Position numbers and translations under genes: made by a program
Notes under the pieces: generated by a model
What the model was told of the DNA's origin: nothing
The model's database searches: none
Seen by the model: the letters and a program-made list of their open reading frames with translations, nothing else
In this document: piece after piece, positions 5,068 through 41,587 of the stretch
How positions within the stretch are numbered: position 1 is the first letter of the stretch
Layout: every line of letters begins with the position of its first letter
From: a virus
Taxonomy: Duplodnaviria; Caudoviricetes
Virus record (IMG/VR): IMGVR_UViG_3300048502_000142
Coordinates: 1 to 64,000 of that record
DNA: 64,000 bases
Strand: one strand, 5' to 3'

Positions 5068-5583
5068 CTACCGGTCGAGCGAGAGGTACTCCCGCGCCCG
5101 CGACAGGCGCGAGCGGACGGTGCCGATCGGAATCCCGAACCGCGCGGCGAGTTCGCCGGAGGTGCCACCACCCGCGACCCGCATCACGATCTCGAAGTCG
5201 CCAGGGCGGTTGACGTAGAGATTTTCCAACACTTCGTCGAGTTCGATGCGGGTAAGCGCGTCCCGGGCACCGTCAGACCCGACGAGAAACTCATCGAAGT
5301 TGTCCGGGAGCCCGCAGATCACGGCGCGGGCTCGGCGACCCTTCCTCACGGAATTGATGTGGAGGTTGTGCATGATCGTCATGAGCCACGCCCTGGCGTT
5401 GCTGCCGGGCACGTACTGCTCGGCGCAGCGGAGAGCCCGCGCGAACGTGTCCTGCACGAGGTCCTCGGCGTCCGCGCCGCGCCGGAGGACGGTCGCGTAG
5501 CGGTGCAGGATCGACGCGATGTGCGGATCGACGATCGCGAGGCGGCCCTCGGTCGCCGCCGGGGACGGCCCGTCGAGCGGCAT
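5068..5583 (-). CDS. ECF-type RNA polymerase sigma factor
   Basis: DAEDLVQDTFARA...NARAWLMTIMHNLHIN (region 2); ELAARFGIPIGTVRSRLSRAR (region 4). Confidence 0.9.
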   Translation of the reverse strand: MPLDGPSPAATEGRLAIVDPHIASILHRYATVLRRGADAEDLVQDTFARALRCAEQYVPGSNARAWLMTIMHNLHINSVRKGRRARAVICGLPDNFDEFLVGSDGARDALTRIELDEVLENLYVNRPGDFEIVMRVAGGGTSGELAARFGIPIGTVRSRLSRAREYLSLDR

Positions 5584-5855
5584 CAGGTGCGCCTCCGGAA
5601 GGCGGGCGCCGAGGAGGGCAAGACGGCGAGCCCCGCTTTGCGCCTCGCGCGGACGTCCCGCAGCGCGCCGGCCACCGCCTCCCGCATCGTCTTCCCCCGA
5701 GCGTACTCGGTGGTCCTCGACATCGCTCCTCCGCCGGTCCACCACAGATTGCACTGCCACGCCCCGTTCGCTCCCTGGAAGATATTGTTCACCCTCCACC
5801 CGAGACCGACGATCTCGTCGACGATGTCCTCTATAGGACGCCTCTCTTCCGCCAT
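5583..5855 (-). CDS. Hypothetical protein
   Basis: Translationally coupled to the sigma gene; MAEERRPIED... Confidence 0.6.
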   Translation of the reverse strand: MAEERRPIEDIVDEIVGLGWRVNNIFQGANGAWQCNLWWTGGGAMSRTTEYARGKTMREAVAGALRDVRARRKAGLAVLPSSAPAFRRRT

Positions 5856-6765: not shown

Positions 6766-7278
6766 TCAGACCTCCGTCAGGTCCCCGTAGTCGAACCGGA
6801 CGACCTGGTCCCGGTTCAGGAAGCTCAGGCGCACCATCACGCGCTGGTCCTTCGTCAGGGAGTCCACGATCCCCTCGAACTCGACGAAGCAATTCCTGGC
6901 GTTCGTGATCCGGACCCGCGCGCCGGGCCGCAGGACAGGCGTATCCACAAGACGCTGGCGAAGGTCGAGCATCGTGGCCTCGGACACGGGCAGTGGCTTC
7001 GGCGAGAGTTGGTTACGATCGGTCAGGAGACGGATAACGCCGGGCGTGCTGTTTATCGAGTCCCATGGTTGCCCCTCGCCAAGATTGACGAACACGTAGC
7101 CGGGGAACAAGGGGATCTCCCTGAACTCGGGGGGCGGCCTCCCGGGCAGGGGCGCCCGGTACGTCGGGCAGAATGCCTCGAACTTCTCCACCCCGTTCAT
7201 CCTCGGCCACCGCATCCCGAGGCTGTCGACGACGCGCTCCTCTTGCCCCACGTACGTGTGAACGCACGACCACCCCAT
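6766..7278 (-). CDS. NusG-family transcription antiterminator
   Basis: W..VHT..GQE, PLFPGYVFV, INSTPGVIRLL (NGN domain); C-terminal KOW with FEGIV. Confidence 0.9.
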   Translation of the reverse strand: MGWSCVHTYVGQEERVVDSLGMRWPRMNGVEKFEAFCPTYRAPLPGRPPPEFREIPLFPGYVFVNLGEGQPWDSINSTPGVIRLLTDRNQLSPKPLPVSEATMLDLRQRLVDTPVLRPGARVRITNARNCFVEFEGIVDSLTKDQRVMVRLSFLNRDQVVRFDYGDLTEV

Positions 7279-7352: not shown

Positions 7353-7428
7353 TGGAGCCGAATGCGAGGATTCGAACCCGCGACCCGTCCCTTACAAAGG
7401 GACCGCTCTACCGCTGAGCTAAATCGGC
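7353..7428 (-). tRNA. tRNA-Thr(UGU)
   Basis: GCCGATTTAGCTCAGCGGTAGAGCG-GTCCC-TTTGTAA-GGGAC...GGTTCGAATCC...TTCGGCTCCA; cloverleaf with encoded CCA. Confidence 0.92.
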
Positions 7429-7483: not shown

Positions 7484-10400
7484 TCACCCGCAGGAGGAAT
7501 ACCCGCAGCTCTTGCAGACCCGGCACCCCTCCTCGATCACAAGCGCGGGCGCCTCGCACTTCGGGCACGCGGAACCGCCGACCGCCTCCACCGTCGCGCC
7601 GGCCGGAAGCGGGGCGGACGCTCCCTCCGATCGCCCCAGGTGGTGCCGCAGGGTCGCGCCCACCAGCGCCGGCAGAGAGGTGTGGAACATCGGCTTCGGC
7701 GACCCCGCCGTCTTGACGATCGCGCCGCCGGCCGGGTCGAACACGTTGAGCAACTCCTCGACGACCAGCGTATAGTCGCCCCGCCTTAGGTTCGCGCTCG
7801 CCAGCCGCGTGAGCGCCGACCACCACGCGTGGTGCGTGACGTTGCTGCTCGTCATGAAGATCTCGAACGGCTTCCCGTCCGGCCCGTCGTTCACTGTCAG
7901 GTAGATCGTCTCCATGACGGAGTCCCCGCCGGGCAGCGGGCGCGGCCACTTGAGCTTGTAGGTCAGCCCCGGCAACTCGTCCGGGCGCCGCGGAACCCCG
8001 TAGGTGATCGGCGCTGCGCCTTCCGGCATCGGAACCGACAACTTCGGGTTCGGGACGAGCGTGCTCTTGCCGACCTCGGATTCCGGCTTCTTCCCTTCGA
8101 CGATCGGTGTGAGCACGGCCCCGCGGATGCCGCTCGGCCGGTACGTCGTGCACCCCTTGCAGCCACGGGCGTAGGCTTCGGAGTAGACGGCCTTGAAATC
8201 CTCGAAACTCGTCTCCGCCGGTAGGTTTATCGTTTTGCTCACTGCCGAATCGCACCACTTCTGCGCAATCGCGAGCGTCGCAAGATGTGCCTCAACCGGA
8301 AGGTCCTGCGCGGTCACGAATAGTCGTTTCTCTTCCGCCTCGTCCAAACGCTTGCCGATCGTATGCCGCTTCTCCCACGCCCAGTCGTAGACCTCCATCG
8401 TCGACCGGCTGCCGTCCGGCTCTATAAATTTGCGCTCGGCGCCGAGCGAGAAGATCGGCTCAATGCCGGACGAGACGTTGCCAGCAAACATGCTAATCGT
8501 GCCGGTCGGCGCAATCGACAGGACGTGCGAGTTGCGGAGGCCGTGCGCAGCTACCAACGATAGCGTGCGCGCCGACAGTTTCTTCAGCATGTGCAAATTG
8601 AACTTGTCCGGAGCGTAGAGCGGGAATACCCCGCGGTCCCTCGCTAACTCAGCACTGCGAGCATACGCGGCGTCGGCAATCGCCTCTAGCCATGTATCCG
8701 TCGCCTCAAGTGCCTCCTTCGATCCATAAACATAACCGCACATAGCGAGCGCGTCGGCGAGTCCGGTCACACCGAGCCCGACGCGACGCTTGTTCGTCGA
8801 CTCCTGTCGCTGCGCCTCTAGCGGATAACCGGAAGTCTCGACGACGTTATCTAGGAAGTCGATCGCCGTCCCGACAAGTGCTCGCAAATCAGCAGTATCG
8901 ATCCAAGCCGACACGGTAAAAGGCGACTGAACTAGAGCTGCGAGGTTGATCGAACCTAGGCAGCAGGCGCCATAAGGAGGCAGGGGCTGTTCGCCACATG
9001 GGTTAGTTTGCGACAGAGTTTCACAGTAATTTATATTGTTAAGCGCATTTAATCGATCGACGAAAATTACTCCAGGTTCGGCGTATTCGTAAGTTGATCG
9101 CATAATCAGATCCCACAATTCGCGGGCCTTTAACGTCTTCCGTACCGCGCCCTCCCAGACAAGATCCCAACTCTCTCCGGCCTCGATAGCATGCATAAAT
9201 GCGTCAGGAACGAGCACCGACACGTTGAAGTTCGTGAGCCTGCCGGGCTCGCGCTTCGCCCGGATAAAATCCTCGATATCGGGATGATCGGCCCGCAGGC
9301 ACGCCATCATCGCGCCGCGACGGGAATTTGATACGCTAATTCCTTCGGCTACGTACGAATGCGTATCCTCTACCTCGATATCGTAGACGTGCCGGTCCCC
9401 GACTTCCTCAATCTCCCTTATCCGTATCCCACCAAACTTCAACAACTCGGCGTCCGGAAACACATCTTGGAAAGTATGATAACCTATGTTCTGTCCCGGC
9501 ATTATCCGCCTTCTAATCAACTTGCTAGACCATTCGACACTTTTTAATGCCTCCGGCGGATACACGAAGGAGTGACTCCTGCGATTAACGTTTTCGCGGA
9601 TCTTGGATAACCACGGCCCGAACAGGGACAAGAACCGTCCCTGCCACGCCGCCCCACTAATAGATATGCTGTGCATATCCCGCCAGCCGTTAGGACGGCT
9701 CTCGCACCGATACCGACTCGGTATCCCCAAATCCATCAGGATATCCTGGACACGCTTAATCATCCCCTCGGACGCCCCGCCCAGGATCGCGCCCTTCTTG
9801 TTCGACTGCCAGGATCCGCCCCCGTCAAAGTAGCCGGCAACGAACGGTACCGGATCTACCCCGTCCGGGAATTGGATTTCGTGAGATAGGGGCTTCGCCC
9901 CCGCGAGGGCGACTAAGTTCTCCGCGTGCGGATTGTACAGGCAGATAATCGTACAGTCGCCGTCCCCAGGAACAATCTTGTATAGATACTTATTGTCATC
10001 TAATATTGACTGACACTTCTGAATGCTAACCTGTCCGAACGCCGAATTAGCAAACGATATCGACACGTGATGCAAGACAACACGTCCGTCGTCGTAGGTC
10101 CGGTACCGAGTATGTCCGTTCGCCCAGTAGTGCCCTAGGACGTAGGACAGGTCACTAGCTACGTAAGACCCTTGCATTCCCGGAAAGAAGCGCGTCGGAA
10201 AGAGACAGGTATCCCCTTCCGACATCTCACCGATAGACTTCTTAACAACCGCCCCGTCCTCATTTATAGTGTGAAAACGATGCGTAGGCGTGCAGACGAT
10301 CGAGCGCCCGTGCTCGAACGTAACCCGGATTGACCGGGCTACTCCGTTATCAAAATAACTCGTAATCTTCCGCCACCCCAGATGCGTCTTCACCCTTACC

Positions 10401-10951
10401 GGCAAACGCTCCTCGACAATCCTGCAGATAGAAAAAAACCCGTGGTCGGTCGTAAGAACGGTGTCACCGTCTAGGCACCCCGCACTCATAATCGTGCGAC
10501 ACATAGCATCCCACGTATCCATAAACGGCAGCGGACCGGACGCGTCAGAATCGACACTTCTTACCAGTTCACCCTTCGGACGGATCGTCGAGAAGTCGTA
10601 GCCGATCCCGCCACCCTGCTGGAGCGTTAGGGCCGCCTCCTTCAGGTGCGAGAAGATCCCGTCGAGACTATCCGGGATCGTACCCATTCCATAGCAGTTC
10701 ATCATCGTAACCCGTCGCCCGGTTCCGGCGCCGGCAAGGATACGTCCGGCGGGCAGGAACTTGAAGTCGCGCAGGGCGTCCATATACATCATGGACAGAT
10801 TGCGATGCGCCGGAGTAGCGACGGGACACGCCCCCTCAGCAACCGCCCGCGCGACGCGCCACCAGGTATCCTCGATCGTCGCCTCGGGCTCGCCGCCTAC
10901 CGGAGCGTACCGGTACTTCGTGCGCCACACCCAATCCTGCGCCTTGTTCAT
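7484..10951 (-). CDS. nrdJ: Class II (adenosylcobalamin) ribonucleotide reductase with intein and C-terminal Zn ribbon
   Basis: FLPAGRILAGAG, NC, GGGIGYDFS, RRGAMM, TNPCGEQPL, IAPTGTIS, SKTIN, KGCTTYR; terminal CPKC...CKSCGYSSCG. Confidence 0.95.
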   Translation of the reverse strand: MNKAQDWVWRTKYRYAPVGGEPEATIEDTWWRVARAVAEGACPVATPAHRNLSMMYMDALRDFKFLPAGRILAGAGTGRRVTMMNCYGMGTIPDSLDGIFSHLKEAALTLQQGGGIGYDFSTIRPKGELVRSVDSDASGPLPFMDTWDAMCRTIMSAGCLDGDTVLTTDHGFFSICRIVEERLPVRVKTHLGWRKITSYFDNGVARSIRVTFEHGRSIVCTPTHRFHTINEDGAVVKKSIGEMSEGDTCLFPTRFFPGMQGSYVASDLSYVLGHYWANGHTRYRTYDDGRVVLHHVSISFANSAFGQVSIQKCQSILDDNKYLYKIVPGDGDCTIICLYNPHAENLVALAGAKPLSHEIQFPDGVDPVPFVAGYFDGGGSWQSNKKGAILGGASEGMIKRVQDILMDLGIPSRYRCESRPNGWRDMHSISISGAAWQGRFLSLFGPWLSKIRENVNRRSHSFVYPPEALKSVEWSSKLIRRRIMPGQNIGYHTFQDVFPDAELLKFGGIRIREIEEVGDRHVYDIEVEDTHSYVAEGISVSNSRRGAMMACLRADHPDIEDFIRAKREPGRLTNFNVSVLVPDAFMHAIEAGESWDLVWEGAVRKTLKARELWDLIMRSTYEYAEPGVIFVDRLNALNNINYCETLSQTNPCGEQPLPPYGACCLGSINLAALVQSPFTVSAWIDTADLRALVGTAIDFLDNVVETSGYPLEAQRQESTNKRRVGLGVTGLADALAMCGYVYGSKEALEATDTWLEAIADAAYARSAELARDRGVFPLYAPDKFNLHMLKKLSARTLSLVAAHGLRNSHVLSIAPTGTISMFAGNVSSGIEPIFSLGAERKFIEPDGSRSTMEVYDWAWEKRHTIGKRLDEAEEKRLFVTAQDLPVEAHLATLAIAQKWCDSAVSKTINLPAETSFEDFKAVYSEAYARGCKGCTTYRPSGIRGAVLTPIVEGKKPESEVGKSTLVPNPKLSVPMPEGAAPITYGVPRRPDELPGLTYKLKWPRPLPGGDSVMETIYLTVNDGPDGKPFEIFMTSSNVTHHAWWSALTRLASANLRRGDYTLVVEELLNVFDPAGGAIVKTAGSPKPMFHTSLPALVGATLRHHLGRSEGASAPLPAGATVEAVGGSACPKCEAPALVIEEGCRVCKSCGYSSCG
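9326..10477 (-). mobile_element. Intein in NrdJ (384 aa, LAGLIDADG-type)
   Basis: MSAG|CLDGDT...CTPTHRF...FVAGYFDGGG...VYDIEVEDTHSYVAEGISVSN|SRRGA; lower GC. Confidence 0.92.
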
Positions 10952-23604: not shown

Positions 23605-24980
23605 GACACCGCCTCCATCGTCTTGAGTACCTCGCGCTCGCGAACGTCCTTCGACCGGTACATGCGCTCAATGAGGCGCTCGAACATCTCGTCCGCCTGA
23701 CGCCCCTTGCGCCGGAGGTTCGCGACCACGCCGTCTAGTCCGTCCGCGCCGACGACGTCTACCGTGACCGGACTCCTCTGCCCGAACCGCCAGCAGCGGC
23801 GAACGCCCTGGTAGTATTGCTCGAATGAGTGGGAGACCATGAAGCCCACGTGCGCGCACCGCTGGAAGTTCATTCCCCAGGCGCCGATCTTGGGCTTCGA
23901 AACGAGACGCTTGACCTGCCCCTCGGAGAAGGCCAGGAAGACTTCCTCCTTCCGCTCGTCCGGATCGGCCCCGCTCACCTGCACCGCGTCGGGGATCAGC
24001 TCCGTTAGGAGATCTCCCTCGGCGTTAAGATTGCACCACACGAGGGACATCGGGTGTGCGGCCGACAGCTCGGCGAGCTTCTCGCAGCGCTCCCGCAGCG
24101 TCCTCCTACCCACCTCGCGCTGCGCAGACAAGCCGTCTGCCAGGGGATCGAATAGACGCCCGGGGAGCGTCCTGCGTGCATCCACAATGTGCGTGTGCTC
24201 TTCGAGCCCCGGGAGGAGAAAGGGGCCGTCGTCGAAGCCCAGGTCGGAGGGTTTGCGCACAGCTCGCGCCCAGGAACTCACCCATCGCCAGAACGGCTCC
24301 TCAGCGTGCCCCTTTAGTCGAAACTTAACGTTCTCTCCCCAGCCGCGGCGGGCGGCCGATCCCCTGCCGTCGTCGGCGGCGAAGAACCGGCCGAGGACGT
24401 CTACATAGCCGAGTTCGCCGAGCGCCTCACTGTGCGTCCCCAGCTCGACGTAGTCGTTCGGCGCGCTCGTCGCGGTGCAGAGCAGCCGATAGCGCATCTT
24501 CGACAGGAAGCGTGTAACCTCGACGCTCCGCACGCCGTCGAACGACTTCAGGCACGAACTCTCGTCACAGACGACGCCGACGAAATCGGTGGCCTCGAAC
24601 TTGTCCAGCATCTCGTAGTTCGCCACGACGATGCCCGACTTCGGAAGGTTTCGCCCGTCGCGGGACCGAACGCACCCGATCCCGAACTTCTCGCCCTCGC
24701 GCACGGTCTGCGCAGAGACCGCCAACGGCGTCAGGACGAGCACCCTGCCGCCCGTGTGCTCGACGACGTTCTGCGCCCACGCTAGCTGCATGAGCGACTT
24801 CCCGAGGCCGCACTCAGCGAGGATCGCACCCCGCGCCCGCCGCTGCGCCCACTCGATAAGGGAGCCCTGGAAGTCGAACGCCTCGGCTGGGATGAACGTA
24901 GGTGCGAACCCGTCGCCGTCCGCGACGTGCTCCTTCCGGTAAAGGAAGGTCCGGTAGTCGTCTACGCTGCCAGCGGCCAC
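23592..24980 (-). CDS. SNF2-like superfamily 2 helicase coupled to the methyltransferase
   Basis: CGLGKS, VCDESS, TATSAPND, GMNFQ, QGVRRCWRFGQ. Confidence 0.88.
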   Translation of the reverse strand: MAAGSVDDYRTFLYRKEHVADGDGFAPTFIPAEAFDFQGSLIEWAQRRARGAILAECGLGKSLMQLAWAQNVVEHTGGRVLVLTPLAVSAQTVREGEKFGIGCVRSRDGRNLPKSGIVVANYEMLDKFEATDFVGVVCDESSCLKSFDGVRSVEVTRFLSKMRYRLLCTATSAPNDYVELGTHSEALGELGYVDVLGRFFAADDGRGSAARRGWGENVKFRLKGHAEEPFWRWVSSWARAVRKPSDLGFDDGPFLLPGLEEHTHIVDARRTLPGRLFDPLADGLSAQREVGRRTLRERCEKLAELSAAHPMSLVWCNLNAEGDLLTELIPDAVQVSGADPDERKEEVFLAFSEGQVKRLVSKPKIGAWGMNFQRCAHVGFMVSHSFEQYYQGVRRCWRFGQRSPVTVDVVGADGLDGVVANLRRKGRQADEMFERLIERMYRSKDVREREVLKTMEAVSWLR

Positions 24981-26848
24981 TTTACCTCCTCCGTGTCCGA
25001 CCAGTCGCCGTCCACCTTCGTCGTCTTGATCTCGATGTTCATCGGCACGTCGATCCAACTCCACTGCTCCAGCAGCCACTCGCTGCACAGGTAGTGGCAC
25101 AACTTCACCAGGTCCTCGAACTCGTCGGGGTGGTAGTCGATCAGCGTGCTGTCGTGGATCTCCCCGATGATCTTGCTCTTCCACCCGCGGATGCGGCGCT
25201 CAAGCTCGACGAGCACCTTCAGAAGGCAGTGGAACGCGGCGCCCTGGACAGGGTAGTTGATTACCTGGTTCCGCTGCATGTAGCCGGAGCAGACGAAGCC
25301 CGTCTTCATCTCGAACCGGCCGTTCCTCTGGTACTCCTCGTGCCACTTCTTCCGCCACCGATTGTAGACCTTGAACCGGTTGTTCCAGAAGTCGTCCTCG
25401 ATCCTCTTCATGTGTTGCGCGAAGTCTTCGAGGGACGACATGCCGTTCTCTAGCATTATACGTCCGATCGGCTCCCCCCGGAAGTTCAGGCCGTCCGTCG
25501 CCTTCCACCGGCCCGAGCGTGGCATCTTGCACCACGTGAAGGCGATGTTAAACGCGCAGCTCTCGTACCAGTCGCCGTAGAACTGCGGGAAGACGAAGCC
25601 GTTCTTCGCGCTCTGCCGGAGGATCTCGCTGAAGTTGTCGCCCTTCTGCGGCTGGTAGCTCTCCGGCAGCCAGAAGATCTGCCGGGCCATGTCGCCGTGC
25701 ATGTTCGACTTCGGATTGAGCAGGTACTCCCGCATCCGCGGGTCCTTGTGGTAGCAGCAGGCGACGGAGACCTCGATCCCCTTGAAGTCGATCTCCATGA
25801 TCGCGTGCCCCAGACGCGGAACGATCGCCCGCCGGCACAGAAACATAGACTCCGGGTCCCGCGAGGGCACGTTCTGCATGTTCGGGTCGGACGAAGAATT
25901 GTGGACGCAGATCTCGTTAGCGATAAAATTGTGGCAGTCCTCGACCTCGATGTCGTAGACGTCGACCGCCTCGTCCAACCATTCGACGCGAGTTATCATG
26001 TGATTTCCAGGGATACCCCCGCGCCCGTAGGGATTGCGGACTGGGCCGGGCGACACAAACGGGACACCGCGCTTGCCGAGCATCCTCTGCGCCTCCTCGT
26101 ACGTCCCGTCAACTAGGCGAATTAAGTGCTCCGGCGTAACATCTAGATGCCCGCTTCCGTGATTTCCCCTCTCCGACCAGTGAAGTCTAACGACCTTGCG
26201 GTGCCCGGTCTTGCCGGTCCACAGAACCTTCTTTAGCGCCGGCCGCAGGGCGTCGTCGAAGCAGTAGACGTAGTCACCGACCCGGACGTCCTCGATCGGC
26301 ACCCCATCGGGATGCGTGAGGAAGTCCCGAGCAACTAAAACCTTCGACCCTTTCGCGACGCAGCTCCGATACGTCTGGACTGTATGCAGCGAGAAGGACG
26401 GGTGGAGGAAGCCATCGACCTGATAGCGGTCGAAGCCGATCAGGACGTTCTTTACCTTATTCAGACGCCGCAGCCGCAGCAGGTCGACGACGCCGTCTAC
26501 CTCGACCTGGCGGAGGGACTCCTCGTCCGTCCCCTCCTCGTCGCTCTCCGTCATCTTGAACGGCTTGACCTTCAAATCGTCGTAGAGCACGGCCCGGAGC
26601 TGATGCGGGCTGTTCCAGTTCGTCTTGCCCTCGAACCGCCTCTGCCAGACCGTCCCGAGTTCCTTCCTCTCTAGGCGGCGCCGGCTCTGCTCGATCTTGC
26701 CGTCGAGCCACTCAAGCTTCTCCCGGACGTACTCGACATCGACCCGCATCCCCGCGCGCTCGATCGCGGCGAGCGCCTCGGAGCCCGCCTGAAACAGCCG
26801 GTAGGCGTCGACCCGGCTCAGGCGCGAGTTCGATCCCAGGTCAGACAC
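24962..26848 (-). CDS. Family A DNA polymerase, polymerase domain only, with mini-intein
   Basis: IERAGMRVD, NWNSPHQL, TYRS/SSSDPNMQNVP, DFKGIEV (A), RQSAKNGFVFPQFYG (B), NYPVQG, EIHDS (C). Confidence 0.93.
   Translation of the reverse strand: MSDLGSNSRLSRVDAYRLFQAGSEALAAIERAGMRVDVEYVREKLEWLDGKIEQSRRRLERKELGTVWQRRFEGKTNWNSPHQLRAVLYDDLKVKPFKMTESDEEGTDEESLRQVEVDGVVDLLRLRRLNKVKNVLIGFDRYQVDGFLHPSFSLHTVQTYRSCVAKGSKVLVARDFLTHPDGVPIEDVRVGDYVYCFDDALRPALKKVLWTGKTGHRKVVRLHWSERGNHGSGHLDVTPEHLIRLVDGTYEEAQRMLGKRGVPFVSPGPVRNPYGRGGIPGNHMITRVEWLDEAVDVYDIEVEDCHNFIANEICVHNSSSDPNMQNVPSRDPESMFLCRRAIVPRLGHAIMEIDFKGIEVSVACCYHKDPRMREYLLNPKSNMHGDMARQIFWLPESYQPQKGDNFSEILRQSAKNGFVFPQFYGDWYESCAFNIAFTWCKMPRSGRWKATDGLNFRGEPIGRIMLENGMSSLEDFAQHMKRIEDDFWNNRFKVYNRWRKKWHEEYQRNGRFEMKTGFVCSGYMQRNQVINYPVQGAAFHCLLKVLVELERRIRGWKSKIIGEIHDSTLIDYHPDEFEDLVKLCHYLCSEWLLEQWSWIDVPMNIEIKTTKVDGDWSDTEEVKWPLAA
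25898..26362 (-). mobile_element. Mini-intein in DNA polymerase (155 aa)
   Basis: TYRS|CVAKGS...VTPEHLI...VYDIEVEDCHNFIANEICVHN|SSSDPN. Confidence 0.92.
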
Positions 26849-30870: not shown

Positions 30871-32796
30871 TCAGGCGACGGGAACTATCCCGCACTCGAT
30901 CGCGGCCCGGCCGATAGCGGTTACGACCTGCGGGACCACGGTATTCCCCAGCACCCTTAGCCGGTCGTCCCGCCGACGTCGGTCCACCCCGCGGGGTAGC
31001 CCATGTACTGCTCCGCCCAGCAGGGGTTCATCCGGGACCGCCACCTTTCCGGCATCGAGGGCTCTTCCGAGGGCGCGGACGAAGGATAGCCCCAGATCCA
31101 CTCCTCCCGCCGCCCTACCAGGTCCGACATGGGGACCGGCTCCGCCACCGACAGGTTCGGGAGGTTCCCCATTATCCGGCCCCACTTGTTGTGGGCCGTC
31201 CCCTCCCGGCCCCACTCGTCCCCGCTCAGAAGGGTAGGCCACAATCCACATGCGGTCCCTCTCGTGTAGAGCGCCCACTCGGGAAGCCGGTACGCAGCAC
31301 CAGACCGCGTCGTACCCCACCTCGGAAAGGTCCCCAAGAACGCGGCCGAGTCCCCTTCCAGCGAGCGCCGCGACGTTCTCCACGATCGCGACGCGGGGTC
31401 GTACCTCGCGAACCAGCCGCGCGTACTCGCCCCAGAGCCAGCTTCCGCCCTTGTCGCCGCGTCCCTCGACGGGTCCTCCATCTACGCCCCTCTTGTGTCC
31501 GGCATTGGAAACGTCGATGCAGTTGTGAACGACGATGCCGTCTGCGACGTAGCTCTCGTCTTCCTCAACCGCAAAGTTATATACGTCCTCTACTGTCCCT
31601 TCCTCAACAACGGATCGGATCGGCCCGAAGAAGTGTCCGTCGAGGACCCTCCCCTGCTTAGACGTAGTCGCCCCGCGGAGTTCCCAGTGGAATGGCTGCT
31701 GATTAACGACGCGTCCCTCTATCTCACACGTAGTTCCCGCATGCTTGCAATAGTACACCGCGACTGATTGCCCGAGTCCTAGAGCGAGCAGACGCATACC
31801 GATCGCGAGCCGCTTCGATATCGAAGCGGCGCGCCAACTCCCATCGTAGACGGTCCCGTCGCCGGATATCCACCCGTCCAAGAGAGCCTGCCGACAGGAC
31901 GCTGGCAGACCGTACACCCACGACGGCAGCCGCTTATTCGCCGCGCCCTTGTCGAATTGAGACAGGTAATCGAACAGCTTCGCATGTTGCACTACAAACT
32001 TCACAACAGTAGATTCGTTAGCTCGCGTCACGTGGAGACCCGCACCCTTGCGAAGCCGATCAACGAGTTCTCCTACCTCGTTGTAAGCACAACACCAGTG
32101 GACGCGCTTTGCCCAACTGTTCTTCCTGCTGCCGCGTCCATGTGCAACCTTACTCGTCCGCTTAAATGACACACACCGGCCGTCCGCGAGCCAGCGCCCT
32201 ACGGCCCAATAAAAATCCTCGTCGCTCTCGCGCTCGGAAGCCGGAATCTCCGGCGCCGGGAGATCCGCCTCTATAGATACGGGGCTTGCCCACAGCATCC
32301 CTCTCGAAAGATTGCGGGCGTCGATCCATTCCGGCTCTACGGCAGCTCTATCACAGAGAGCGTAGAACGGATGCTCTCCCGTTACGCGCATCACAGGCTG
32401 CCCTAGTCCTCGGACGTTTAGAATAGGCGCGTCCCTATTTACATACGTCTCCTTTACCCGACGCCACCGACCCCGGTGTGTCAGGACAACGTCATCAACA
32501 ACAACCTCGGAGATGTCTACCATCCCACGACGGGTCAGGATTAGCGTTCCCTTCGGAAAGCACGGGAAACCACCACAGATTGCATCGACCTGTATATTAT
32601 CTACCTTTAGTCTTTCTGCCGTAAGTCCCTGGACGTCCCGGTATCGTCGCACCCCCGGCCAGTGCTCGGCGAGGACGCGCCGGCAGAAGCGGTCCGTATC
32701 GCAGAACGCCACGGTGCGGAAGCGTCCGGTGGCTTCGAGGCCATAAGAAAAACCCCCTATGCCACTGAACAAATCTAGCAGATTGAGAATAGCCAA
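30871..32796 (-). CDS. C5-cytosine DNA methyltransferase with intein
   Basis: LDLFSGIGGF (I), GGFP/C (IV), VENV (VI), HERDRMW (VIII), LRVLGNTVVP (X). Confidence 0.92.
   Translation of the reverse strand: MAILNLLDLFSGIGGFSYGLEATGRFRTVAFCDTDRFCRRVLAEHWPGVRRYRDVQGLTAERLKVDNIQVDAICGGFPCFPKGTLILTRRGMVDISEVVVDDVVLTHRGRWRRVKETYVNRDAPILNVRGLGQPVMRVTGEHPFYALCDRAAVEPEWIDARNLSRGMLWASPVSIEADLPAPEIPASERESDEDFYWAVGRWLADGRCVSFKRTSKVAHGRGSRKNSWAKRVHWCCAYNEVGELVDRLRKGAGLHVTRANESTVVKFVVQHAKLFDYLSQFDKGAANKRLPSWVYGLPASCRQALLDGWISGDGTVYDGSWRAASISKRLAIGMRLLALGLGQSVAVYYCKHAGTTCEIEGRVVNQQPFHWELRGATTSKQGRVLDGHFFGPIRSVVEEGTVEDVYNFAVEEDESYVADGIVVHNCIDVSNAGHKRGVDGGPVEGRGDKGGSWLWGEYARLVREVRPRVAIVENVAALAGRGLGRVLGDLSEVGYDAVWCCVPASRVGALHERDRMWIVAYPSERGRVGPGGDGPQQVGPDNGEPPEPVGGGAGPHVGPGRAAGGVDLGLSFVRALGRALDAGKVAVPDEPLLGGAVHGLPRGVDRRRRDDRLRVLGNTVVPQVVTAIGRAAIECGIVPVA
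30957..31481 (-). CDS. Nested out-of-frame methyltransferase beta polypeptide
   Basis: YDPASRSWRTS...TFPRWGTTRSG...GLWPT...MNPCWAEQYMGYPAGWT. Confidence 0.7.
   Translation of the reverse strand: MEDPSRDAATRAEAGSGASTRGWFARYDPASRSWRTSRRSLEGDSAAFLGTFPRWGTTRSGAAYRLPEWALYTRGTACGLWPTLLSGDEWGREGTAHNKWGRIMGNLPNLSVAEPVPMSDLVGRREEWIWGYPSSAPSEEPSMPERWRSRMNPCWAEQYMGYPAGWTDVGGTTG
31522..32562 (-). mobile_element. LAGLIDADG intein at the methyltransferase catalytic Cys (347 aa)
   Basis: GGFP|CFPKGT...VTGEHPF...VGRWLADG...LLDGWISGDG...VYNFAVEEDESYVADGIVVHN|CIDVS. Confidence 0.92.
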
Positions 32797-33865: not shown

Positions 33866-34204
33866 CTACCGTTCCGCTATGCGCTCTAGCGCCTCGATCT
33901 GCCGATCCGAGAGCGTCCCCGTCCGCTCGAACTGCTCCCGCACGTCGACGACGAACTCGCTGCGGTCGCGCTCCAGCCTGCCTAGCAGGTCCTCGATGTC
34001 GGCGCGGCGACGGGGTGACTCCGGGGGAATCGATCCCCGCTCTACCGTCGCCGCCCAGACCCGCGACAGGACCTTTACCCAGTCTAGGTCGTGCTTCCGC
34101 AGGATCTCGTTCGCCGAGCGCAGCGCCGTGAGCGCCTCCGCGTCGGACCCCGAGAGGGTCTTGTTCATCAGCACCTTCAGGCGCGACAGGTCGTTCAGGT
34201 TCAT
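33866..34204 (-). CDS. Hypothetical protein (DUF2786-like N-terminus)
   Basis: LSRLKVLM...SGSDAEALTALRSANEIL; LSDRQ tail. Confidence 0.65.
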   Translation of the reverse strand: MNLNDLSRLKVLMNKTLSGSDAEALTALRSANEILRKHDLDWVKVLSRVWAATVERGSIPPESPRRRADIEDLLGRLERDRSEFVVDVREQFERTGTLSDRQIEALERIAER

Positions 34205-37053
34205 TTCAACAGGTAACTCCCCGTAAACGGTCGCCCCCTATTTAGGTGCTGCATGACGACGACCTGGTCGTCGACGGAGAACGCCCCGTCGCGGACGAGG
34301 ATCGCGCCGACCCGGATCACCCCAAGGGCCTTCTCGCGCCCGTCCGGGGACTGGTTCAGGGCGAACATGGCTGTCACGTGGGCGTTCTTGCGCTTGTCCT
34401 CCGTGAAGTTCCCGACGCTGAGCTTGCCCTGCTTGTAGCTCGCGGCGTCGGCCTGCGTAACCGTCACGAGGAGGGCGTGGCGCTCCTGGCTCACCCGGCG
34501 CAAACCACCCCATATGTCGTCCTGCTTGTGCCGGAACTCCTTGACGTCGGACGACATAATGTCCGGGTAGTCGACCACGATGACGTCGGGAACGAAGTCG
34601 TCCACCCGCTCCCACTCGTCTAGGCAGCTATCCATCTCGGCCGTCGTCAGCGTATTGCGCGAGTAGGTCGCGAGCTTAAACCGGCGGCGGTGACGCCTGA
34701 AGAAGTGCTCGGCGTGCCGACGCGCTATCTTCCCGGTCAAGACTTCCCGCGCGTCCACGTGCATGAGCCACACGGTGGGGCGCCGGACGGCGCAGGTCCC
34801 GCTCTCGCACGGCCGGTAGTCCGGAAAGTCCCGGGCCTTCTCGGTCAGCGTCGAGAGGCACTCGAAGCTACCGCGGTCCTTGTAGAACTCCTCAAGCTGC
34901 CCCTCGTGGATCCCGTGGTCGCAGTTGCGGTCGGACCGGTCGCAGGCGTCAAATTGGTTCTTGACGCAGTCGCCGACCGCGTACCAGTGCTCGACGCAGG
35001 CCTTCGGGTCGTCCGACCAGCCGGCCAAGTGGACGCCGAAGCGCCGGAGTTGCTGGTCCTGTGTCATGTCACCTCCCTGAAAGAACGCGACGTTCCGCTG
35101 CTGGCGGATCGCCCGCACGACGATGTCCAGCAGCCACCAGGTATTGTGGACTAAGACATTCTCGGCAACGAAATTATGCTGATTAGCCACCGTTAAATCG
35201 AACGTCTCTTCACTCCCGACAAAGTCAATCGACAGAATCTCGTCCCACAATATTTGGGAGTTTAGATACTTTACGCCGGCAACGGTGTCCGATACCTCGG
35301 TAAACGATTGCCGCATTATCGGCAATCCCTTATCCAACTGCTGACGAATGGCGGGCGCTTTCGTAAAGCACTTTACAAAAGCCCTCCACCGCGGATCGTG
35401 CCTGTCACGCCGGACACCAAAAACGCCGAACTCGCGCTCGACATCATCATAAAATCGACGCGCTACTTCCGAGGGGAATTTATCAAGAAAAGACCGAAGT
35501 ACCGTGGGGCTATCCGAAGTAACTCGGCAGAGTTTCTCTCCCTTTCCAAATAGACACCCTACTCTATTCCTAAATCGAGTGATATTCTCACAATCACGAA
35601 CGGCTACCGTCCACGCACCCTTGCATATGTTCTCCTTAAAATGCACCCGAGAGACAATCCCGAATCTCGATAGGAGTTCCTGGACCTGCCTTGCTAGACG
35701 CTCGTTCGCTACGGAGAATCCCACCCCCTTTCCGCTTCCGTCTACCCACCCATCACAAGTATACAAGACGGACAAAAAGAGACTAATCTCGGCCGAGTTC
35801 AACCTAAACACAATAGGGGGAACGAGTTTGTCGTACGACCTCTTATTCATAAGGCCATTCTCAAAAAGGAAATTCCGAACGTGATTGTGCCTGTGCAGGC
35901 CGCGAACGGCCTCCGCATTATACACGCCGCAATTAATCCCCTTCCAAACGGTCCGACAACCCATCGCGGAGACGCACCGATCAAAATCGCGCCTAATATC
36001 CTCATCCGCCGTAGTAAACTGCACTCGCTCCCGCATCTCATTACCTAGGCACCCCTCAGCGATAAAATAGGCGAGCAGCCTGATCTTCTCGTCAGGAAGG
36101 GTCTCACTACCGAATACCGGTATCTCCTTAGGTACCGCGATGTACCGACCAATCTCTAGATCCTGTAACTCGACCCACCCATCAGGAGTTAAGAATGGAT
36201 GATTTTTAGTCACCTTTACTTTACGTCCCGTCCGCGTTGTCACACTCCAAACGTCTTTTACACCATTCACATAAAAATCCGTAATAGTTGAGGGGACGAA
36301 TTGCCCAATAGTCTCATCATACGCGATTACATCACGGCGCTCGTCCCGAATAACGTCCCGAATGGGAAGGACGTCCCCATTAGACAATAAGACGCGTTGA
36401 TCTCCCGGTAGACACTTGCCGCGCTTCTCGGGGGCGAGGAAGGCGACGAGGGAGGCGCGGGAGAGTTCGGAGTTGAGCATATCCCCGAGGTCGCCGGGGT
36501 ACTCCACGACGGGCTTACGGACGGTGCCGAAGGCGCGCTCGATGGCCTCGAACCCCTGGGGGGAGTTGACGTCGAGCCCTCGGGTCGTCTCGAAGCTCGT
36601 CGGCCGGAACGACCGGAGTGCCCTCTCGACCGCCTCGTCGTCGCCGCGCTCGCTCGCGACCATGACCTCGTCCAGGTAGGTCTTCTGCTCGCGCTGCCGC
36701 AGGTACTTGACCGTCCGGTCGTAGAGGTAGTCGGCGTTGAACAGCTCGTCGCGGCCGTACTCGGCCGAGACCGTCTCCAGCACCCTCTCGATGTACTCGG
36801 CCTCGGCCTTGGGAACCCCCTCGGACTGGACGCGCTCGAAGTAGATCGCCCCCAGGTCCGTGTCGGCGACCCTGCCGTACTTGTCGAAGTGCTCCAGGCA
36901 CCAGCGGGCGACGCGTCCCAGCTCCGGAGACTCCAGCAGGTCGTCGCGCCAGAAGCGCCGGATCTTCCGGACGAAGACGCTCGACACGGCAAGGCCGGTG
37001 ACGATGCGCCGCTCGACGTCGGAGGCGGACCTCCCCTCTCGGATCGTACCCAA
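34201..37053 (-). CDS. DnaB-like replicative helicase with intein (start approximate)
   Basis: APEKRGK/TWWL Walker A, IVVDYPDIM, VTVTQA, EDKRK.AHV; the 1408-aa ORF call over-extends the 5' end. Confidence 0.9.
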   Translation of the reverse strand: MGTIREGRSASDVERRIVTGLAVSSVFVRKIRRFWRDDLLESPELGRVARWCLEHFDKYGRVADTDLGAIYFERVQSEGVPKAEAEYIERVLETVSAEYGRDELFNADYLYDRTVKYLRQREQKTYLDEVMVASERGDDEAVERALRSFRPTSFETTRGLDVNSPQGFEAIERAFGTVRKPVVEYPGDLGDMLNSELSRASLVAFLAPEKRGKCLPGDQRVLLSNGDVLPIRDVIRDERRDVIAYDETIGQFVPSTITDFYVNGVKDVWSVTTRTGRKVKVTKNHPFLTPDGWVELQDLEIGRYIAVPKEIPVFGSETLPDEKIRLLAYFIAEGCLGNEMRERVQFTTADEDIRRDFDRCVSAMGCRTVWKGINCGVYNAEAVRGLHRHNHVRNFLFENGLMNKRSYDKLVPPIVFRLNSAEISLFLSVLYTCDGWVDGSGKGVGFSVANERLARQVQELLSRFGIVSRVHFKENICKGAWTVAVRDCENITRFRNRVGCLFGKGEKLCRVTSDSPTVLRSFLDKFPSEVARRFYDDVEREFGVFGVRRDRHDPRWRAFVKCFTKAPAIRQQLDKGLPIMRQSFTEVSDTVAGVKYLNSQILWDEILSIDFVGSEETFDLTVANQHNFVAENVLVHNTWWLLDIVVRAIRQQRNVAFFQGGDMTQDQQLRRFGVHLAGWSDDPKACVEHWYAVGDCVKNQFDACDRSDRNCDHGIHEGQLEEFYKDRGSFECLSTLTEKARDFPDYRPCESGTCAVRRPTVWLMHVDAREVLTGKIARRHAEHFFRRHRRRFKLATYSRNTLTTAEMDSCLDEWERVDDFVPDVIVVDYPDIMSSDVKEFRHKQDDIWGGLRRVSQERHALLVTVTQADAASYKQGKLSVGNFTEDKRKNAHVTAMFALNQSPDGREKALGVIRVGAILVRDGAFSVDDQVVVMQHLNRGRPFTGSYLLK
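35143..36414 (-). mobile_element. LAGLIDADG intein in the helicase P-loop (424 aa)
   Basis: RGK|CLPGDQ...VTKNHPF...LLAYFIAEG...LSVLYTCDG...TFDLTVANQHNFVAENVLVHN|TWW; lower GC. Confidence 0.93.
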
Positions 37054-38065: not shown

Positions 38066-39268
38066 CTACGTACGACCGGAGCGCCCGGTGATCGGGTCAC
38101 GCCCGAGCGGGTCGCCGGCCGCCATCTCCGCCCGCCACCTGGAGAACGACTTGCTCGTCGGGACGAACACGGAGGCGGTGTAGTCGGCCCACCCCTGCCC
38201 GGATATCCAGTCCAGGTACTGCCAGAGCAGAGACGTCGACCCCTGCGCGAAGTCCGCAGGGGGTGTGGCCGCCTGCACCATTCGCCCGATCTCCAGCTGC
38301 ATGGCCGCAAGGCACCGCGCGAGGTCCGCCTCGGAGGTCGCGCCGCGGACGGACAGCTCCCGCGCCTTCGGCATAATCTCGGCGAGGAAGTGCCTGGCCC
38401 GCCTGGACGGATCCCCGAGCCCGGCAAACGCGTCCTCCAGGACCTCTTGCACAGTCCTCTCCACCGATCCGTCGGCGTGCCCGTTCAGGCGAGCGGGAGG
38501 GCTGCGCCTGGCATCGTCGCGCGGCGCTCGCTCCTCCTCGTCAGCCCAGCCCTCCTGGTTGAGCCACGTCGCCATGTGGCAGGTGAACGTCTTGTCCTGT
38601 CCCGCGCGCTCCCGCGCGTACCGGACGACGCCGGCCGTCACCGTCTCCAGATCGGTCTTCTTCAGCGCCCGCCTGCACGCTATCCGGGCCGCTCCCTTCC
38701 CGACGTGCCGCGGGTAGATCTGCCACAGCGCCTCGAACTCCGCCAGAAAGGCCACCTCCCTCGCCGAGGGTGCACGCCGGACGAACCCGTAGACCACCGG
38801 CACCGGCAGCCGGGGGGATGCGCACACCTCGCGGACCTCCCCGTCCAACCCTACGAGGTGGACGGGAATGCCGCGCCGCAGCGCCCGGTGGTACGAACGC
38901 CAGGTGCAGCCGACCTCCTTCGGCTCCTCCGTCGACGGTGCGACGATCAGCTCGTCCACGGCCTTCACCAGGTCGATCGCGCAGGCGGGGTAGTCCCGCG
39001 CCGGCAGCCTCCTGGAGTCAGGCCGGCAGTCCCTGCACCGGCACAGCGGGTAATCGCCGACCCTGGCCGCGATCGTCGGCGGGTGCAGGATCATCGGGAT
39101 GTGGCACGCAACGCATATGTTGTGGAACACCTTGTCTCGGTGCAGGCCGTCCCCGTGGCGGCCTATCCAGCCGCCCCCGGAGTAGCGGGCGCGCACGAAC
39201 TGCCGCACGGCCTTGACCTGCGCATCGGACATGCCCCGACTCGTGCCGACGAACCCGAAGTACCTCAT
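38066..39268 (-). CDS. SLOG-like domain fused to a phage replication-initiator-like domain
   Basis: GFVGTSRGMSDAQ...HGD...HPP; FEALWQIYPRHVGKGAA...HMATWLNQEGWAD. Confidence 0.6.
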   Translation of the reverse strand: MRYFGFVGTSRGMSDAQVKAVRQFVRARYSGGGWIGRHGDGLHRDKVFHNICVACHIPMILHPPTIAARVGDYPLCRCRDCRPDSRRLPARDYPACAIDLVKAVDELIVAPSTEEPKEVGCTWRSYHRALRRGIPVHLVGLDGEVREVCASPRLPVPVVYGFVRRAPSAREVAFLAEFEALWQIYPRHVGKGAARIACRRALKKTDLETVTAGVVRYARERAGQDKTFTCHMATWLNQEGWADEEERAPRDDARRSPPARLNGHADGSVERTVQEVLEDAFAGLGDPSRRARHFLAEIMPKARELSVRGATSEADLARCLAAMQLEIGRMVQAATPPADFAQGSTSLLWQYLDWISGQGWADYTASVFVPTSKSFSRWRAEMAAGDPLGRDPITGRSGRT

Positions 39269-39274
39269 CCCAAG

Positions 39275-39838
39275 TCACCGCCTCCGTCGAAGTCCGCGAG
39301 CGCGTCGTGCGTCCACCCCACCTTGGCGCCGGACCGGCGGACGAACCTGTACGCAGCCAACGCGCCCTCCTACGCTAACCCTGGCCGCGACGGCCAGTCG
39401 GTCGACGCGCTCGTTGTGCGGGTTCCCGCTGTGCCCGCGCACCCATCGCCAGTCCACTTCGTGCCTCCCGCTCACGGCCAGGAGGCGCTCCCACAGCTCC
39501 CGGTTCTTCACCAGCCTGTTGTCCCGCGTCCGCCACTGCCGCTTTACCCACCCGCGGATCCACAGCGTGATCCCGTTCTTCACGTACTGACTGTCGGTGT
39601 ACAGCGTGACGGCGCAGCGCCACTTGAGTGCCTCCAAGCCGGCGATAGCACCCATCAGCTCCATCTGGTTGTTCGTCGCGCAGGGGTCGGAGCCGACGAC
39701 CTCACGCTCCACGAGCCCGGTCTTATGCTCGTAAAGGAGGAGCGCGGCGAACCCGCCCGCGCCTGGATTGGGTAAACAGGATCCATCCGTGTAGATCCTT
39801 ACCCGCGGGTGTCGCGGCAGCCTCTCGCTGTCAGGCAT
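39275..39838 (-). CDS. rnhA: Ribonuclease HI
   Basis: IYTDGSCLPNPGAGG, TNNQMEL, YTDSQYV, VKNRELW, WVRGHSGNPHNERVDRLA. Confidence 0.96.
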   Translation of the reverse strand: MPDSERLPRHPRVRIYTDGSCLPNPGAGGFAALLLYEHKTGLVEREVVGSDPCATNNQMELMGAIAGLEALKWRCAVTLYTDSQYVKNGITLWIRGWVKRQWRTRDNRLVKNRELWERLLAVSGRHEVDWRWVRGHSGNPHNERVDRLAVAARVSVGGRVGCVQVRPPVRRQGGVDARRARGLRRRR

Positions 39839-40044
39839 CGGAATGGTTCTCGTCCCTCGTCATCTGGGGGCTCCGGGATAGCCTACTATACGTCGGGACG
39901 AGATCCGCGTGGAAGGAGCCTCCGGAAAACGTCCAGACCGCCGCGAAAAGTCAACGCTGCGCGCCCGAATTTTCTTCATGTCTACCTCTCTACGCGTGCG
40001 CGTGCCCTCGCGTGCGCATATACGCGCGTACGTGTGCGATACTA

Positions 40045-40700
40045 AAGCCAATACAGGAAGACAAGCGTTGATTTAGAGCTGAGCGGAGACGTATGTCCCC
40101 CGTGACCGGGGAAACATGCGCCTCCAGTGACTTGACAGTTTGACCCGTCGCCTCGCTTTCAACGTCCGAACCAGCACGCTCAAGATTTTTAGATGGGGAG
40201 CCCCGGCGGTCATCCTGTACCGAGATTGCTGTGCCGAAGTCCCGCCTCGCGGCGACGACGGTTGTCCCGCGCTCCGGAGCCGGTTCGGCGACTGCCGGGC
40301 GCGCCCCGCCATCGCGGGGTCGTTGGTGCCCATCCCACTCTTCGCCGCTCAGGGGCGGCAGGAGGTCGGTCTCCCGGTGTCTGCGGGTGAGGTGTGGCTT
40401 GTGGCGTTGAGCCGGGCCATGCCGTCCTGTATCCGGCCACCCGACGCGCCTAGGGACGGGCTCCGCTCGGGAGGCCTCCCAGCCACGCTATGCATCGAAC
40501 GGAAGGACCGCGGGGAGCTTTCTTCGGTAGACCCTTGCCAGCGACGTGAAAGCGGGCTATATAAGGACCCATCAAGAAAGCTTGCGGCGCACTCCTCATT
40601 CTCCTCCGGGCCGGTTTCCAGAAATGGGTTCCGGCCCGAAGTGTTTCTAAGGTACGACGAAACATCGGCCGCGTAAACGGGGTAGATAAACAACCGGGGT
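40045..40700 (-). ncRNA. Candidate large structured non-coding RNA
   Basis: No convincing ORF; many stems, with G-U pairs favouring the minus strand; ends approximate. Confidence 0.45.
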
Positions 40701-40732
40701 CGGATGTAATTCCCCGTCCAGCGCTAACGGTC

Positions 40733-40763
40733 TTGCCGCCCTACGCTTCCGGTCGTGTATAGC
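40733..40763 (+). promoter_or_regulatory. Putative sigma70-like promoter for the tRNA
   Basis: TTGCCG followed by TGTATAGC just upstream of the tRNA. Confidence 0.4.
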
Positions 40764-40767
40764 TCCT

Positions 40768-40841
40768 GCCCGTGTAGCTCAGTTGGAAGAGTGCCTTGCC
40801 TGTAACAAGGAGGTCGGCCGTTCGAATCGGCCCCGCGGGCT
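40768..40841 (+). tRNA. tRNA-Thr(UGU), atypical (C33, no encoded CCA)
   Basis: GCCCGTG-TAGCTCAGTTGGAAGAGTG-CCTTG-CCTGTAA-CAAGG-AGGTC-GGCCGTTCGAATCGGCC-CCGCGGGC-T. Confidence 0.8.
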
Positions 40842-40890
40842 CCTACTCCGTGCGTCTCGTGACCCCGTCCCTCCGGACGTATAGTGGTGC

Positions 40891-41160
40891 ATGTCGAACC
40901 TATCCAAGCTCAGCAAGATCCTCCCGATGCTCGGCTCGTCGTCCGAGGGCGAGATCGTCGCCGCCGTCGCGGCGATCGGCCGAATGCTCGTCGCGGACGG
41001 CAAGGACTGGCACTGGCTCACGACCCGTCTGTCGGGACCGGGCACCCCGCCGGACTCCTTCGGTGACAACAAGCGCGCGGAGCAGGAAAACCGCCGGTTT
41101 GCGGACCCAGGTGTCGGTCCTGTCGAAGGAGAACGCGGCCCTGCGCGACGACCGCAATGA
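40891..41160 (+). CDS. Hypothetical protein (DUF2786-like N-terminus), possibly frameshifted
   Basis: LSKLSKILPMLGSSSEGEIVAAVAAIGRML...DWH. Confidence 0.55.
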   Translation: MSNLSKLSKILPMLGSSSEGEIVAAVAAIGRMLVADGKDWHWLTTRLSGPGTPPDSFGDNKRAEQENRRFADPGVGPVEGERGPARRPQ

Positions 41161-41501
41161 GCCTCCACAGGGTCGTGCGCCGGCTCGACCAGGAGGTCGC
41201 GGCGCTAAGGGCGCAGCAGCACCGCTCCTGGACGCGTCGGGACCCTGGGGATAACCGGTCTGAAGGCGGGGGATAAGTCGGACGGGGAGTCCGCACGTCG
41301 CCGCTGGCTCTTCCGCGTCGGGAAGATGCTGGAGCGCGCCGATGCCAATCCCGACGTTAACGACGACGCGCCGCGCGCCCTGCGCGCGCTCCTCGGGCTG
41401 CTGGAATGCGAGGGGTACGTGCCGGGGGAGTACGAGCTGCGCATCCTGACCCCGCTGTGGGCAGCCTACGTCGAGGCGCGCACGGCGGAGCGTGCGTGAT
41501 G

Positions 41502-41521
41502 TTTTGCGGTTTTCCGCAAAA
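41502..41521. promoter_or_regulatory. Palindromic operator, copy 1
   Basis: TTTTGCGG-TTTT-CCGCAAAA, followed by TGGACG-N17-TAGGGT. Confidence 0.75.
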
Positions 41522-41587
41522 TGTGACTGGACGGAACGTCGGGGCGGCGCTAGGGTGCGGGCCATCGAGAGACGGAGAGATCCCGAG

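Follow-up and report, generated by a model that had tools for sequence, protein, structure and literature searches.

The RNA II preprimer of plasmid ColE1 is a folded RNA of about 550 nt, which is cut by RNase H and extended by Pol I, and which is controlled by the antisense RNA I. Studies have shown that the R-loops of phage T4 oriF are processed by the viral RNase H (PMC3016281). GOLLD and ROOL lie next to tRNAs in phages and are maybe co-transcribed with them (PMC5737381). In this study, we analyzed a stretch of 64,000 nt (the window), with which an IMG/VR virus record of 91.9 kb and an estimated completeness of about 90% begins. A first-pass annotation had proposed a structured non-coding RNA of about 650 nt at 40045-40700 of this window and, more speculatively, a role for it as an R-loop replication primer.

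The phage has a high GC content, and peat metagenome DNA runs contain its record. The left end of the record carries the genes of the small terminase, an ECF-like sigma factor, a NusG-like protein, and an intein-bearing ribonucleotide reductase. The ECF-like sigma factor (Sigma70_r2 and r4) and the NusG-like protein, encoded at 5068-5799 and 6766-7278 on the minus strand, adjoin the small terminase gene; because both are encoded, the phage has parts of a transcription machinery of its own. Left of the gap under study, the minus strand carries, in order, rnhA for RNase HI (39275-39838; Pfam RNase_H, 1.2e-41; phrog_531, 6e-52), the replication-initiator gene (38066-39268; phrog_270 "replication initiation protein", 3e-20) with a RepA-like HTH segment at about aa 165-275, a gene for a 326-aa protein of unknown function, and a DnaB-like helicase (assigned by phrog_19) that is split by an intein. 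The tblastn matches of the initiator gene were RepA-like initiators of actinophages, and its closest relative was 48% identical across 56% of the length. The phage genome also encodes a split family-A polymerase, in which family-A polymerase and 3'-5' exonuclease domains were detected. Right of the gap, the plus strand carries tRNA-Thr (UGU) at 40768-40843 (ARAGORN; Rfam tRNA, 40.1 bits), small ORFs, and an SNF2 helicase. An 89-aa ORF lies at 40891-41160, with an ATG at 40891 and a codon score of 0.25.

Several other features of these genes were observed. The phage has a second tRNA-Thr (UGU) gene at 7353-7428 on the minus strand, and the two genes are about 77% alike over the aligned part. 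Intein-splicing and LAGLIDADG domains were found in the ribonucleotide reductase and the DnaB-like helicase, and an intein-splicing remnant was found in the polymerase ORF; the ORFs listed jointly for domains of the intein type are 7484-10951, 24962-26848, 30871-32796, and 34201-37053. The start listed for the SNF2 ORF (GTG at 41492) is probably wrong, and an ATG with a purine-rich leader lies at about 41597. A palindromic operator and a TGGACG-N17-TAGGGT promoter stand at 41503-41560, within the SNF2 ORF as listed. Sites of this kind were found at 41503, 47287, 51168, and 53291, and none was found in the gap.

The gap itself measures 929 nt (39839-40767) and is non-coding. It lies at the divergence point and at the GC-skew minimum, between rnhA on the minus strand and tRNA-Thr on the plus strand, so that the annotation had placed its candidate correctly between tRNA-Thr and RNase HI at the switch of gene direction. 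The annotation had also called it the longest gene-free stretch, and this was borne out: in a sliding measure over the 91.9-kb record, the longest stretch free of codon-phase GC periodicity was 39691-40920 (1230 nt), and the runner-up was 810 nt. The codon log-odds of the gap ORFs were 0.02 at most, compared with 0.2-0.65 for real genes, and none of these ORFs had a Pfam or PHROGs match; the overlapping ORFs thus carry no coding signature.

The gap was compared with known RNA families and with related phages. With the 4227 Rfam models, cmscan gave no match in the gap, either at the gathering thresholds over the whole window or at E<=10 over 39700-41000, where only the tRNA and a chance match to an L31 leader (E=8) were returned. 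The Infernal search against Rfam that the annotation had suggested therefore found no known RNA family, GOLLD and ROOL included. No homologue of the gap was found by blastn with settings for distant matches against 50,697 phage records, or by blastn and nhmmer against 111 and then 191 RNase H/SNF2-relative loci of viral and metagenome origin, and five whole related virus records gave only chance matches of 18-26 nt. An exact 29-mer of the phage tRNA was absent from the viral contigs searched. The nearest relatives show about 50% protein identity (52% for the closest relative of the SNF2 helicase), and none has the same gene order or the tRNA. By these sequence comparisons, the phage lineage is isolated, and the gap RNA is outside all known RNA families.

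Five public runs have words in common with the stretch, and one of them (X3) is a peat metatranscriptome. When the contigs of the runs were aligned across 39000-41500, two X3 contigs of 151 and 249 nt, with word depths of 2.7 and 7.7, covered 40166-40567. The contig at 40166-40316 had 0 differences (100% identity), and the contig at 40319-40567 had 1 difference (40385 G>A, 99.6% identity). Within 39000-41500, no X3 contig fell on rnhA, tRNA-Thr, or the 89-aa ORF, and the only further X3 piece was an unrelated match of 36 nt; holes in the contigs, both in X3 outside 40166-40567 and at 40219-40423 in a second run (X2), prove nothing alone. Because a depth of 7.7 beside unassembled flanks misfits a uniform carry-over of DNA, we take the signal for a local transcript of higher abundance than its neighbors. 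The gap thus gives a non-coding RNA of at least 400 nt (40166-40567) in one metatranscriptome, and the transcript for which the annotation had called exists; as assembled contigs of one run with uninformative Logan contig orientation, these data do not give the strand, ends, or level of the RNA.

We believed that the RNA is more likely to be plus-stranded than minus-stranded. A perfect TTGACA (40132-40137, plus strand) ends 29 nt before the left contig end, which is the spacing expected of a -35 element and a start site, and it weakly suggests the -35 of a plus-strand RNA. No good -10 follows TTGACA, and a consensus scan found no full sigma-70 promoter; a relaxed sigma-70 scan gave one weak minus-strand site at 40213. 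The other cues for the plus strand are the U-rich tail behind a hairpin (hairpin C, 40598-40648), the direction of the tRNA gene, and a predicted hairpin at 40365-40445, and the cues for the minus strand are a better overall folding and the G-U asymmetry of hairpins A (40085-40125) and C. In the plus-strand model, the RNA variant 40385 G>A would change a G-U pair into A-U in the 40365-40445 hairpin, and in the minus-strand model it would change G-C into G-U, which is tolerated. The annotation had assigned the RNA to the minus strand, pointing into rnhA and the replication genes. Neither part of this assignment was supported, because the X3 contigs stop short of rnhA and the few directional cues favor the plus strand if anything. 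Hairpins A and C bracket the RNA contigs at 30-40 nt on either side and both lie outside them; the right contig end is 31 nt short of hairpin C, and tRNA-Thr starts (40768) about 200 nt to the right of the contigs.

Every stem that the annotation had listed was found in its place, and two of the hairpins fold beyond their shuffles. Hairpin A (about 17 bp) had -26.6 kcal/mol and z -5.3 on the minus strand and -23.3 kcal/mol and z -5.0 on the plus strand, and hairpin C, with a GC-rich stem of 11 bp, had z -5.1 (minus) and -4.0 (plus). Both hairpins form on both strands, and the minus strand is better by 2-3 kcal/mol only, owing to G-U pairs (where the other strand has C-A). The remaining stems are present at chance level: hairpin B (40509-40589), with the stem AGCTTTCTT/AAGAAAGCT, had z of only -1.5 (minus) and -2.0 (plus), the GNRA mini-hairpin had z -1.3, and the three copies of TACAGGA/TCCTGTA are of a kind that every shuffle yields for some 7-mer. 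The claimed richness in stems thus comes down to hairpins A and C. On the plus strand, hairpin C has the U-rich tail downstream, which makes it the only terminator-like site listed; this tail is able to pair into another small hairpin. Helices of high predicted probability were obtained on either strand of the gap. If the RNA is plus-stranded, a long irregular hairpin with pair probabilities >0.86 and a G-rich 5' arm is predicted at 40365-40445, and the excess of G over C on the plus strand reaches +14 per 50 nt at 40350-40399.

The fold of 40045-40700 as a whole had z -3.0 (minus) and -0.9 (plus) against shuffles, and it ranked 7th (minus) and 73rd (plus) among 278 native window-strands, which were 656-nt windows of this genome, compared after the effect of GC and G content had been removed by regression. 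The RNA-covered part (40166-40567) had z +0.3/+0.5 and folds no better than shuffles. The folding of 40045-40700 is therefore suggestive rather than exceptional, modestly better than that of ordinary genome windows. Of the proposed structured RNA of about 650 nt, the non-coding nature and the transcription stood, whereas no Rfam model matched and the transcribed core folds like shuffles; the positive support for a large structured RNA is two hairpins only, and the claim is unproven.

The borders of the gap carry three copies of a promoter-like module, which were aligned to the consensus TCCGGNCGT followed by TATAG. The first copy (39885-39898, minus strand) ends in TATAGT and lies 47 nt before the start of rnhA; the second (40745-40762, plus strand) ends in TATAGC and lies 5 nt before tRNA-Thr; and the third (40872-40885, plus strand) ends in TATAGT and lies 5 nt before the ATG (40891) of the 89-aa ORF. 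All three are putative promoters. The copy at 39885-39898 is an inverted copy of 40872-40885 (93%), with an exact 10-mer common to both. The position of the third copy suggests, from the sequence, that the mRNA of the 89-aa ORF is leaderless, and because a promoter-like module stands 5 nt upstream of tRNA-Thr, this tRNA needs no leader from the gap. Alternating purine/pyrimidine tracts are prone to form Z-DNA. Such a tract lies at 39991-40038, just left of 40045, and consists of runs of 15 nt (39991-40005) and 30 nt (40009-40038) with a break of 3 nt. These two runs are the longest of the 92-kb genome, in which the next longest is 14 nt, and CGCGTGCGC occurs twice there, 16 nt apart. No 11-mer of the gap has a copy elsewhere in the genome.

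A comparison of the reference with the strain represented in X2 showed 28 differences in 1364 flanking bases and at most 1 in 724 gap bases. The Fisher p for gap versus flank was 6e-6, and it was 0.002-0.012 when a hypervariable patch was left out and one unlisted difference was charged to the gap; this is a comparison of one strain pair with clustered changes and low-depth contigs, whose coverage omits the GC-richest 205 nt (40219-40423). The gap varies less between these two strains than its flanking genes do. The hypervariable patch (41147-41209, at the end of the 89-aa ORF) has 13 substitutions and 1 indel in 63 nt. In X2, the 3' acceptor arm of tRNA-Thr (40831-40832) has a 1-nt deletion and a C>T change.

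The cumulative GC skew of the record is V-shaped, with a global minimum at 40-41 kb and a flat course over 39.8-41.2 kb, and the GC-skew mapping that the annotation had proposed thus puts the minimum of the record on the gap region. The mean plus-strand skew was -0.088 for the minus-strand genes at 7.4-39.8 kb (n=23) and +0.030 for those at about 55-92 kb (n=38), and the difference between these two groups was significant both overall (Mann-Whitney p=2e-8) and at third codon positions (p=8e-6). Because genes of the same strand oppose each other in skew according to the side on which they lie, the skew switch is not merely a switch of the coding strand. This pattern is the one expected of bidirectional replication and points to a start near the gap, and it fits the adjoining module of rnhA, initiator, and DnaB-like helicase. 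The skew resolves the position of the origin to about 1 kb only; we infer that the origin is within the gap, and it could equally be inside the initiator gene, as in lambda. A scan of the gap for origin elements found no iterons above chance (the best repeat families of k = 7-14 were within the range of dinucleotide shuffles), no tandem repeats, no DnaA box, and no clearly AT-rich unwinding element, the lowest GC content in 50 nt being 0.46 (40025-40099). The structural-gene block (55.5-92 kb) lies on the minus strand, yet it has a positive plus-strand GC skew. Transcription of its genes would run head-on to the inferred replication.

In this study, we tentatively favored the explanation that the gap serves as origin and control region and that its transcript works on the origin in cis, either by activation or by R-loop priming, in the manner of T4 oriF or ColE1. 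The gap would be a non-coding control region at or right beside a bidirectional replication origin. Its three border modules would drive rnhA, the initiator, and the helicase leftwards and tRNA-Thr and early genes rightwards; the left part of the gap would hold the Z-DNA-prone tract and the lowest-GC segment, and the GC-rich center would be transcribed into a discrete RNA. This RNA, more likely of the plus strand, would begin about 30 nt past the TTGACA (40132) and terminate near 40650, at hairpin C. We speculated that transcription through the origin opens it or leaves an RNA-DNA hybrid, and that trimming of the hybrid by the phage RNase HI may yield a primer that serves the family-A polymerase of the phage, as in T4 oriF and ColE1. 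We infer which strand the RNA has and where it ends, as well as any part that it plays in priming. We counted against this explanation the lack of a -10, the contigs that end short of hairpin C, the GC-rich transcribed core, which is unlike the T4 element, the slightly better folding of the minus strand, and the lack of iterons, a DnaA box, and an AT-rich element. As for the R-loop primer idea of the annotation, RNase HI, the initiator, the DnaB-like helicase, the family-A polymerase, and the origin indicated by the skew supply its ingredients, and the RNA contigs that stop before rnhA speak against an RNA pointing into the replication genes.

Other explanations of the gap were weighed against this one. 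The RNA may be a free-standing and stable structured RNA of a new family, about 0.4-0.6 kb long and trans-acting like GOLLD and ROOL, so that its place at the origin would be incidental. A discrete RNA signal confined to the non-coding gap, the conservation of the gap above its flanking genes in two strains, the predicted high-probability helices on either strand, and the minus-strand z of -3.0 with the G-U versus C-A asymmetry of hairpins A and C all agree with this idea, as does the position beside a tRNA in a phage, which is the context of GOLLD and ROOL (PMC5737381). Nevertheless, we consider it unlikely, although worth keeping in view: no Rfam model matched at E<=10, the transcribed core folds like shuffles, the whole region is merely 7th of 278 among genome windows, both significant hairpins form on either strand and are not covered by the RNA contigs, and 191 loci, five whole records, the phage database, and a metagenome scan gave no homologue from which covariation support could come. 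The gap may instead be an ordinary long regulatory spacer of divergent promoters, insulating hairpins or terminators, and operators, with the RNA as a functionless by-product, for example the leader removed from a tRNA precursor by processing or the product of read-through or pervasive transcription. Three promoter-like modules at the borders are what such a spacer would have; hairpins on both strands may be DNA palindromes or bidirectional terminators, and the weak folding signal and the low RNA depth (2.7-7.7) would also be expected. Yet the gap, at 930 nt, far exceeds all other non-coding stretches of this densely packed genome in length and is conserved between strains, and the RNA contigs reach neither rnhA nor the tRNA, which has its own module 5 nt upstream. 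We regard a plain spacer as unlikely, and as slightly less probable than the free-standing RNA.

A more specific form of the priming idea seems improbable to us, namely that the RNA is an orphan preprimer of about 0.5 kb, which would pair with the DNA of the origin, be cut by RNase HI, and be extended by the split family-A polymerase, while the initiator and the DnaB-like helicase would load on the displaced strand and the Z-DNA-prone tract would be a supercoil-sensitive switch. If true, it would mean that a large virulent phage contains an RNA-primed origin resembling that of ColE1. We give still less credit to one or more small protein genes that escaped recognition, or to what is left of a decayed gene, for which the main candidate is the plus-strand frame of the longest gap ORF (40140-40676). 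This frame has a weak GC periodicity and a codon score of 0.11-0.13 at 40180-40420, and a GTG at 40377 lies 11 nt downstream of GGAGG. However, the weak signal lies upstream of this GTG, the sole start with a ribosome-binding site; the codon score of the whole ORF is 0.017, and that of every other gap ORF is negative. The ORF has no relative in 1.84 billion protein representatives and belongs to no Pfam or PHROG family, and its translation is rich in Arg, Ser, Pro, and Cys, as is that of out-of-frame high-GC DNA. It is scarcely credible that the gap and the tRNA form a non-autonomous mobile insert of about 1 kb between the imperfect inverted repeats at 39885-39925 and 40833-40885. These repeats (28 nt at 71%; 14 nt at 93%) do flank the gap and the tRNA, but no target-site duplication is visible and no second copy was found in the genome or in other records. 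Because the repeats stand at promoter distance from both divergent start codons and the tRNA has a third copy in front of it, they fit promoters better than the ends of a mobile insert.

To our knowledge, it is very rare that a replication origin is mapped in an uncultivated phage. In the present case, a fairly clean origin call follows from composition alone, since genes of the same strand are opposite in skew on the two sides, and the call falls on a long, conserved, and transcribed non-coding region beside the genes of RNase HI, an initiator, and a helicase. Should the RNA prime or activate replication, it would be a natural phage case of the RNA-primed logic of ColE1 and T4, in which a single genome carries all components. 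Should it act in trans instead, it would be the founding member of a new family of phage non-coding RNAs linked to tRNAs. The value of the finding is limited by its being the orphan of one rare, uncultivated peat phage without comparative support.

The locus resembles known systems in part. Like GOLLD and ROOL, the gap RNA is several hundred nt long, non-coding, encoded by phage DNA, and located beside a tRNA (PMC5737381). The tRNA-adjacent phage setting to which the annotation had appealed is therefore real, with tRNA-Thr at 40768, whereas the gap differs from GOLLD and ROOL in showing no covariance-model match, no evidence of an ornate multi-junction fold, and no family of homologues. Lambdoid and RepA-plasmid origins are similar in that the gene of a RepA-like initiator is found at a distance of 0.6 kb, with a helicase gene after it, and in the skew minimum; they are different in that the gap has neither repeated binding sites above chance nor the typical AT-rich stretch.

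Compared with ColE1, the RNA is similar in length and comes from a non-coding region that is a putative origin, the phage genome itself encodes RNase HI and a family-A polymerase, and the gap has a G-rich segment on the plus strand. There is no sequence or Rfam similarity to ColE1 and no known antisense partner here, and the phage, unlike ColE1, has its own initiator and helicase. The rnh of T4 is a different kind of enzyme from the type-1 RNase HI of the present phage. The minimal origins of T4 are about 100 bp long with an A+T-rich unwinding element, whereas the transcribed part here is at least 400 nt with 68-80% GC. T4 oriF and oriG consist of a promoter and a downstream unwinding element, and their hybridized transcript is processed by the phage RNase H; here, an R-loop is only proposed. 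Iterons are not needed in oriF and oriG and are absent here (PMC3016281). The locus is also like oriF and oriG in being a probable phage origin region, whose transcript may arise within it, and in having a phage RNase H gene, which in the present phage directly adjoins the region.
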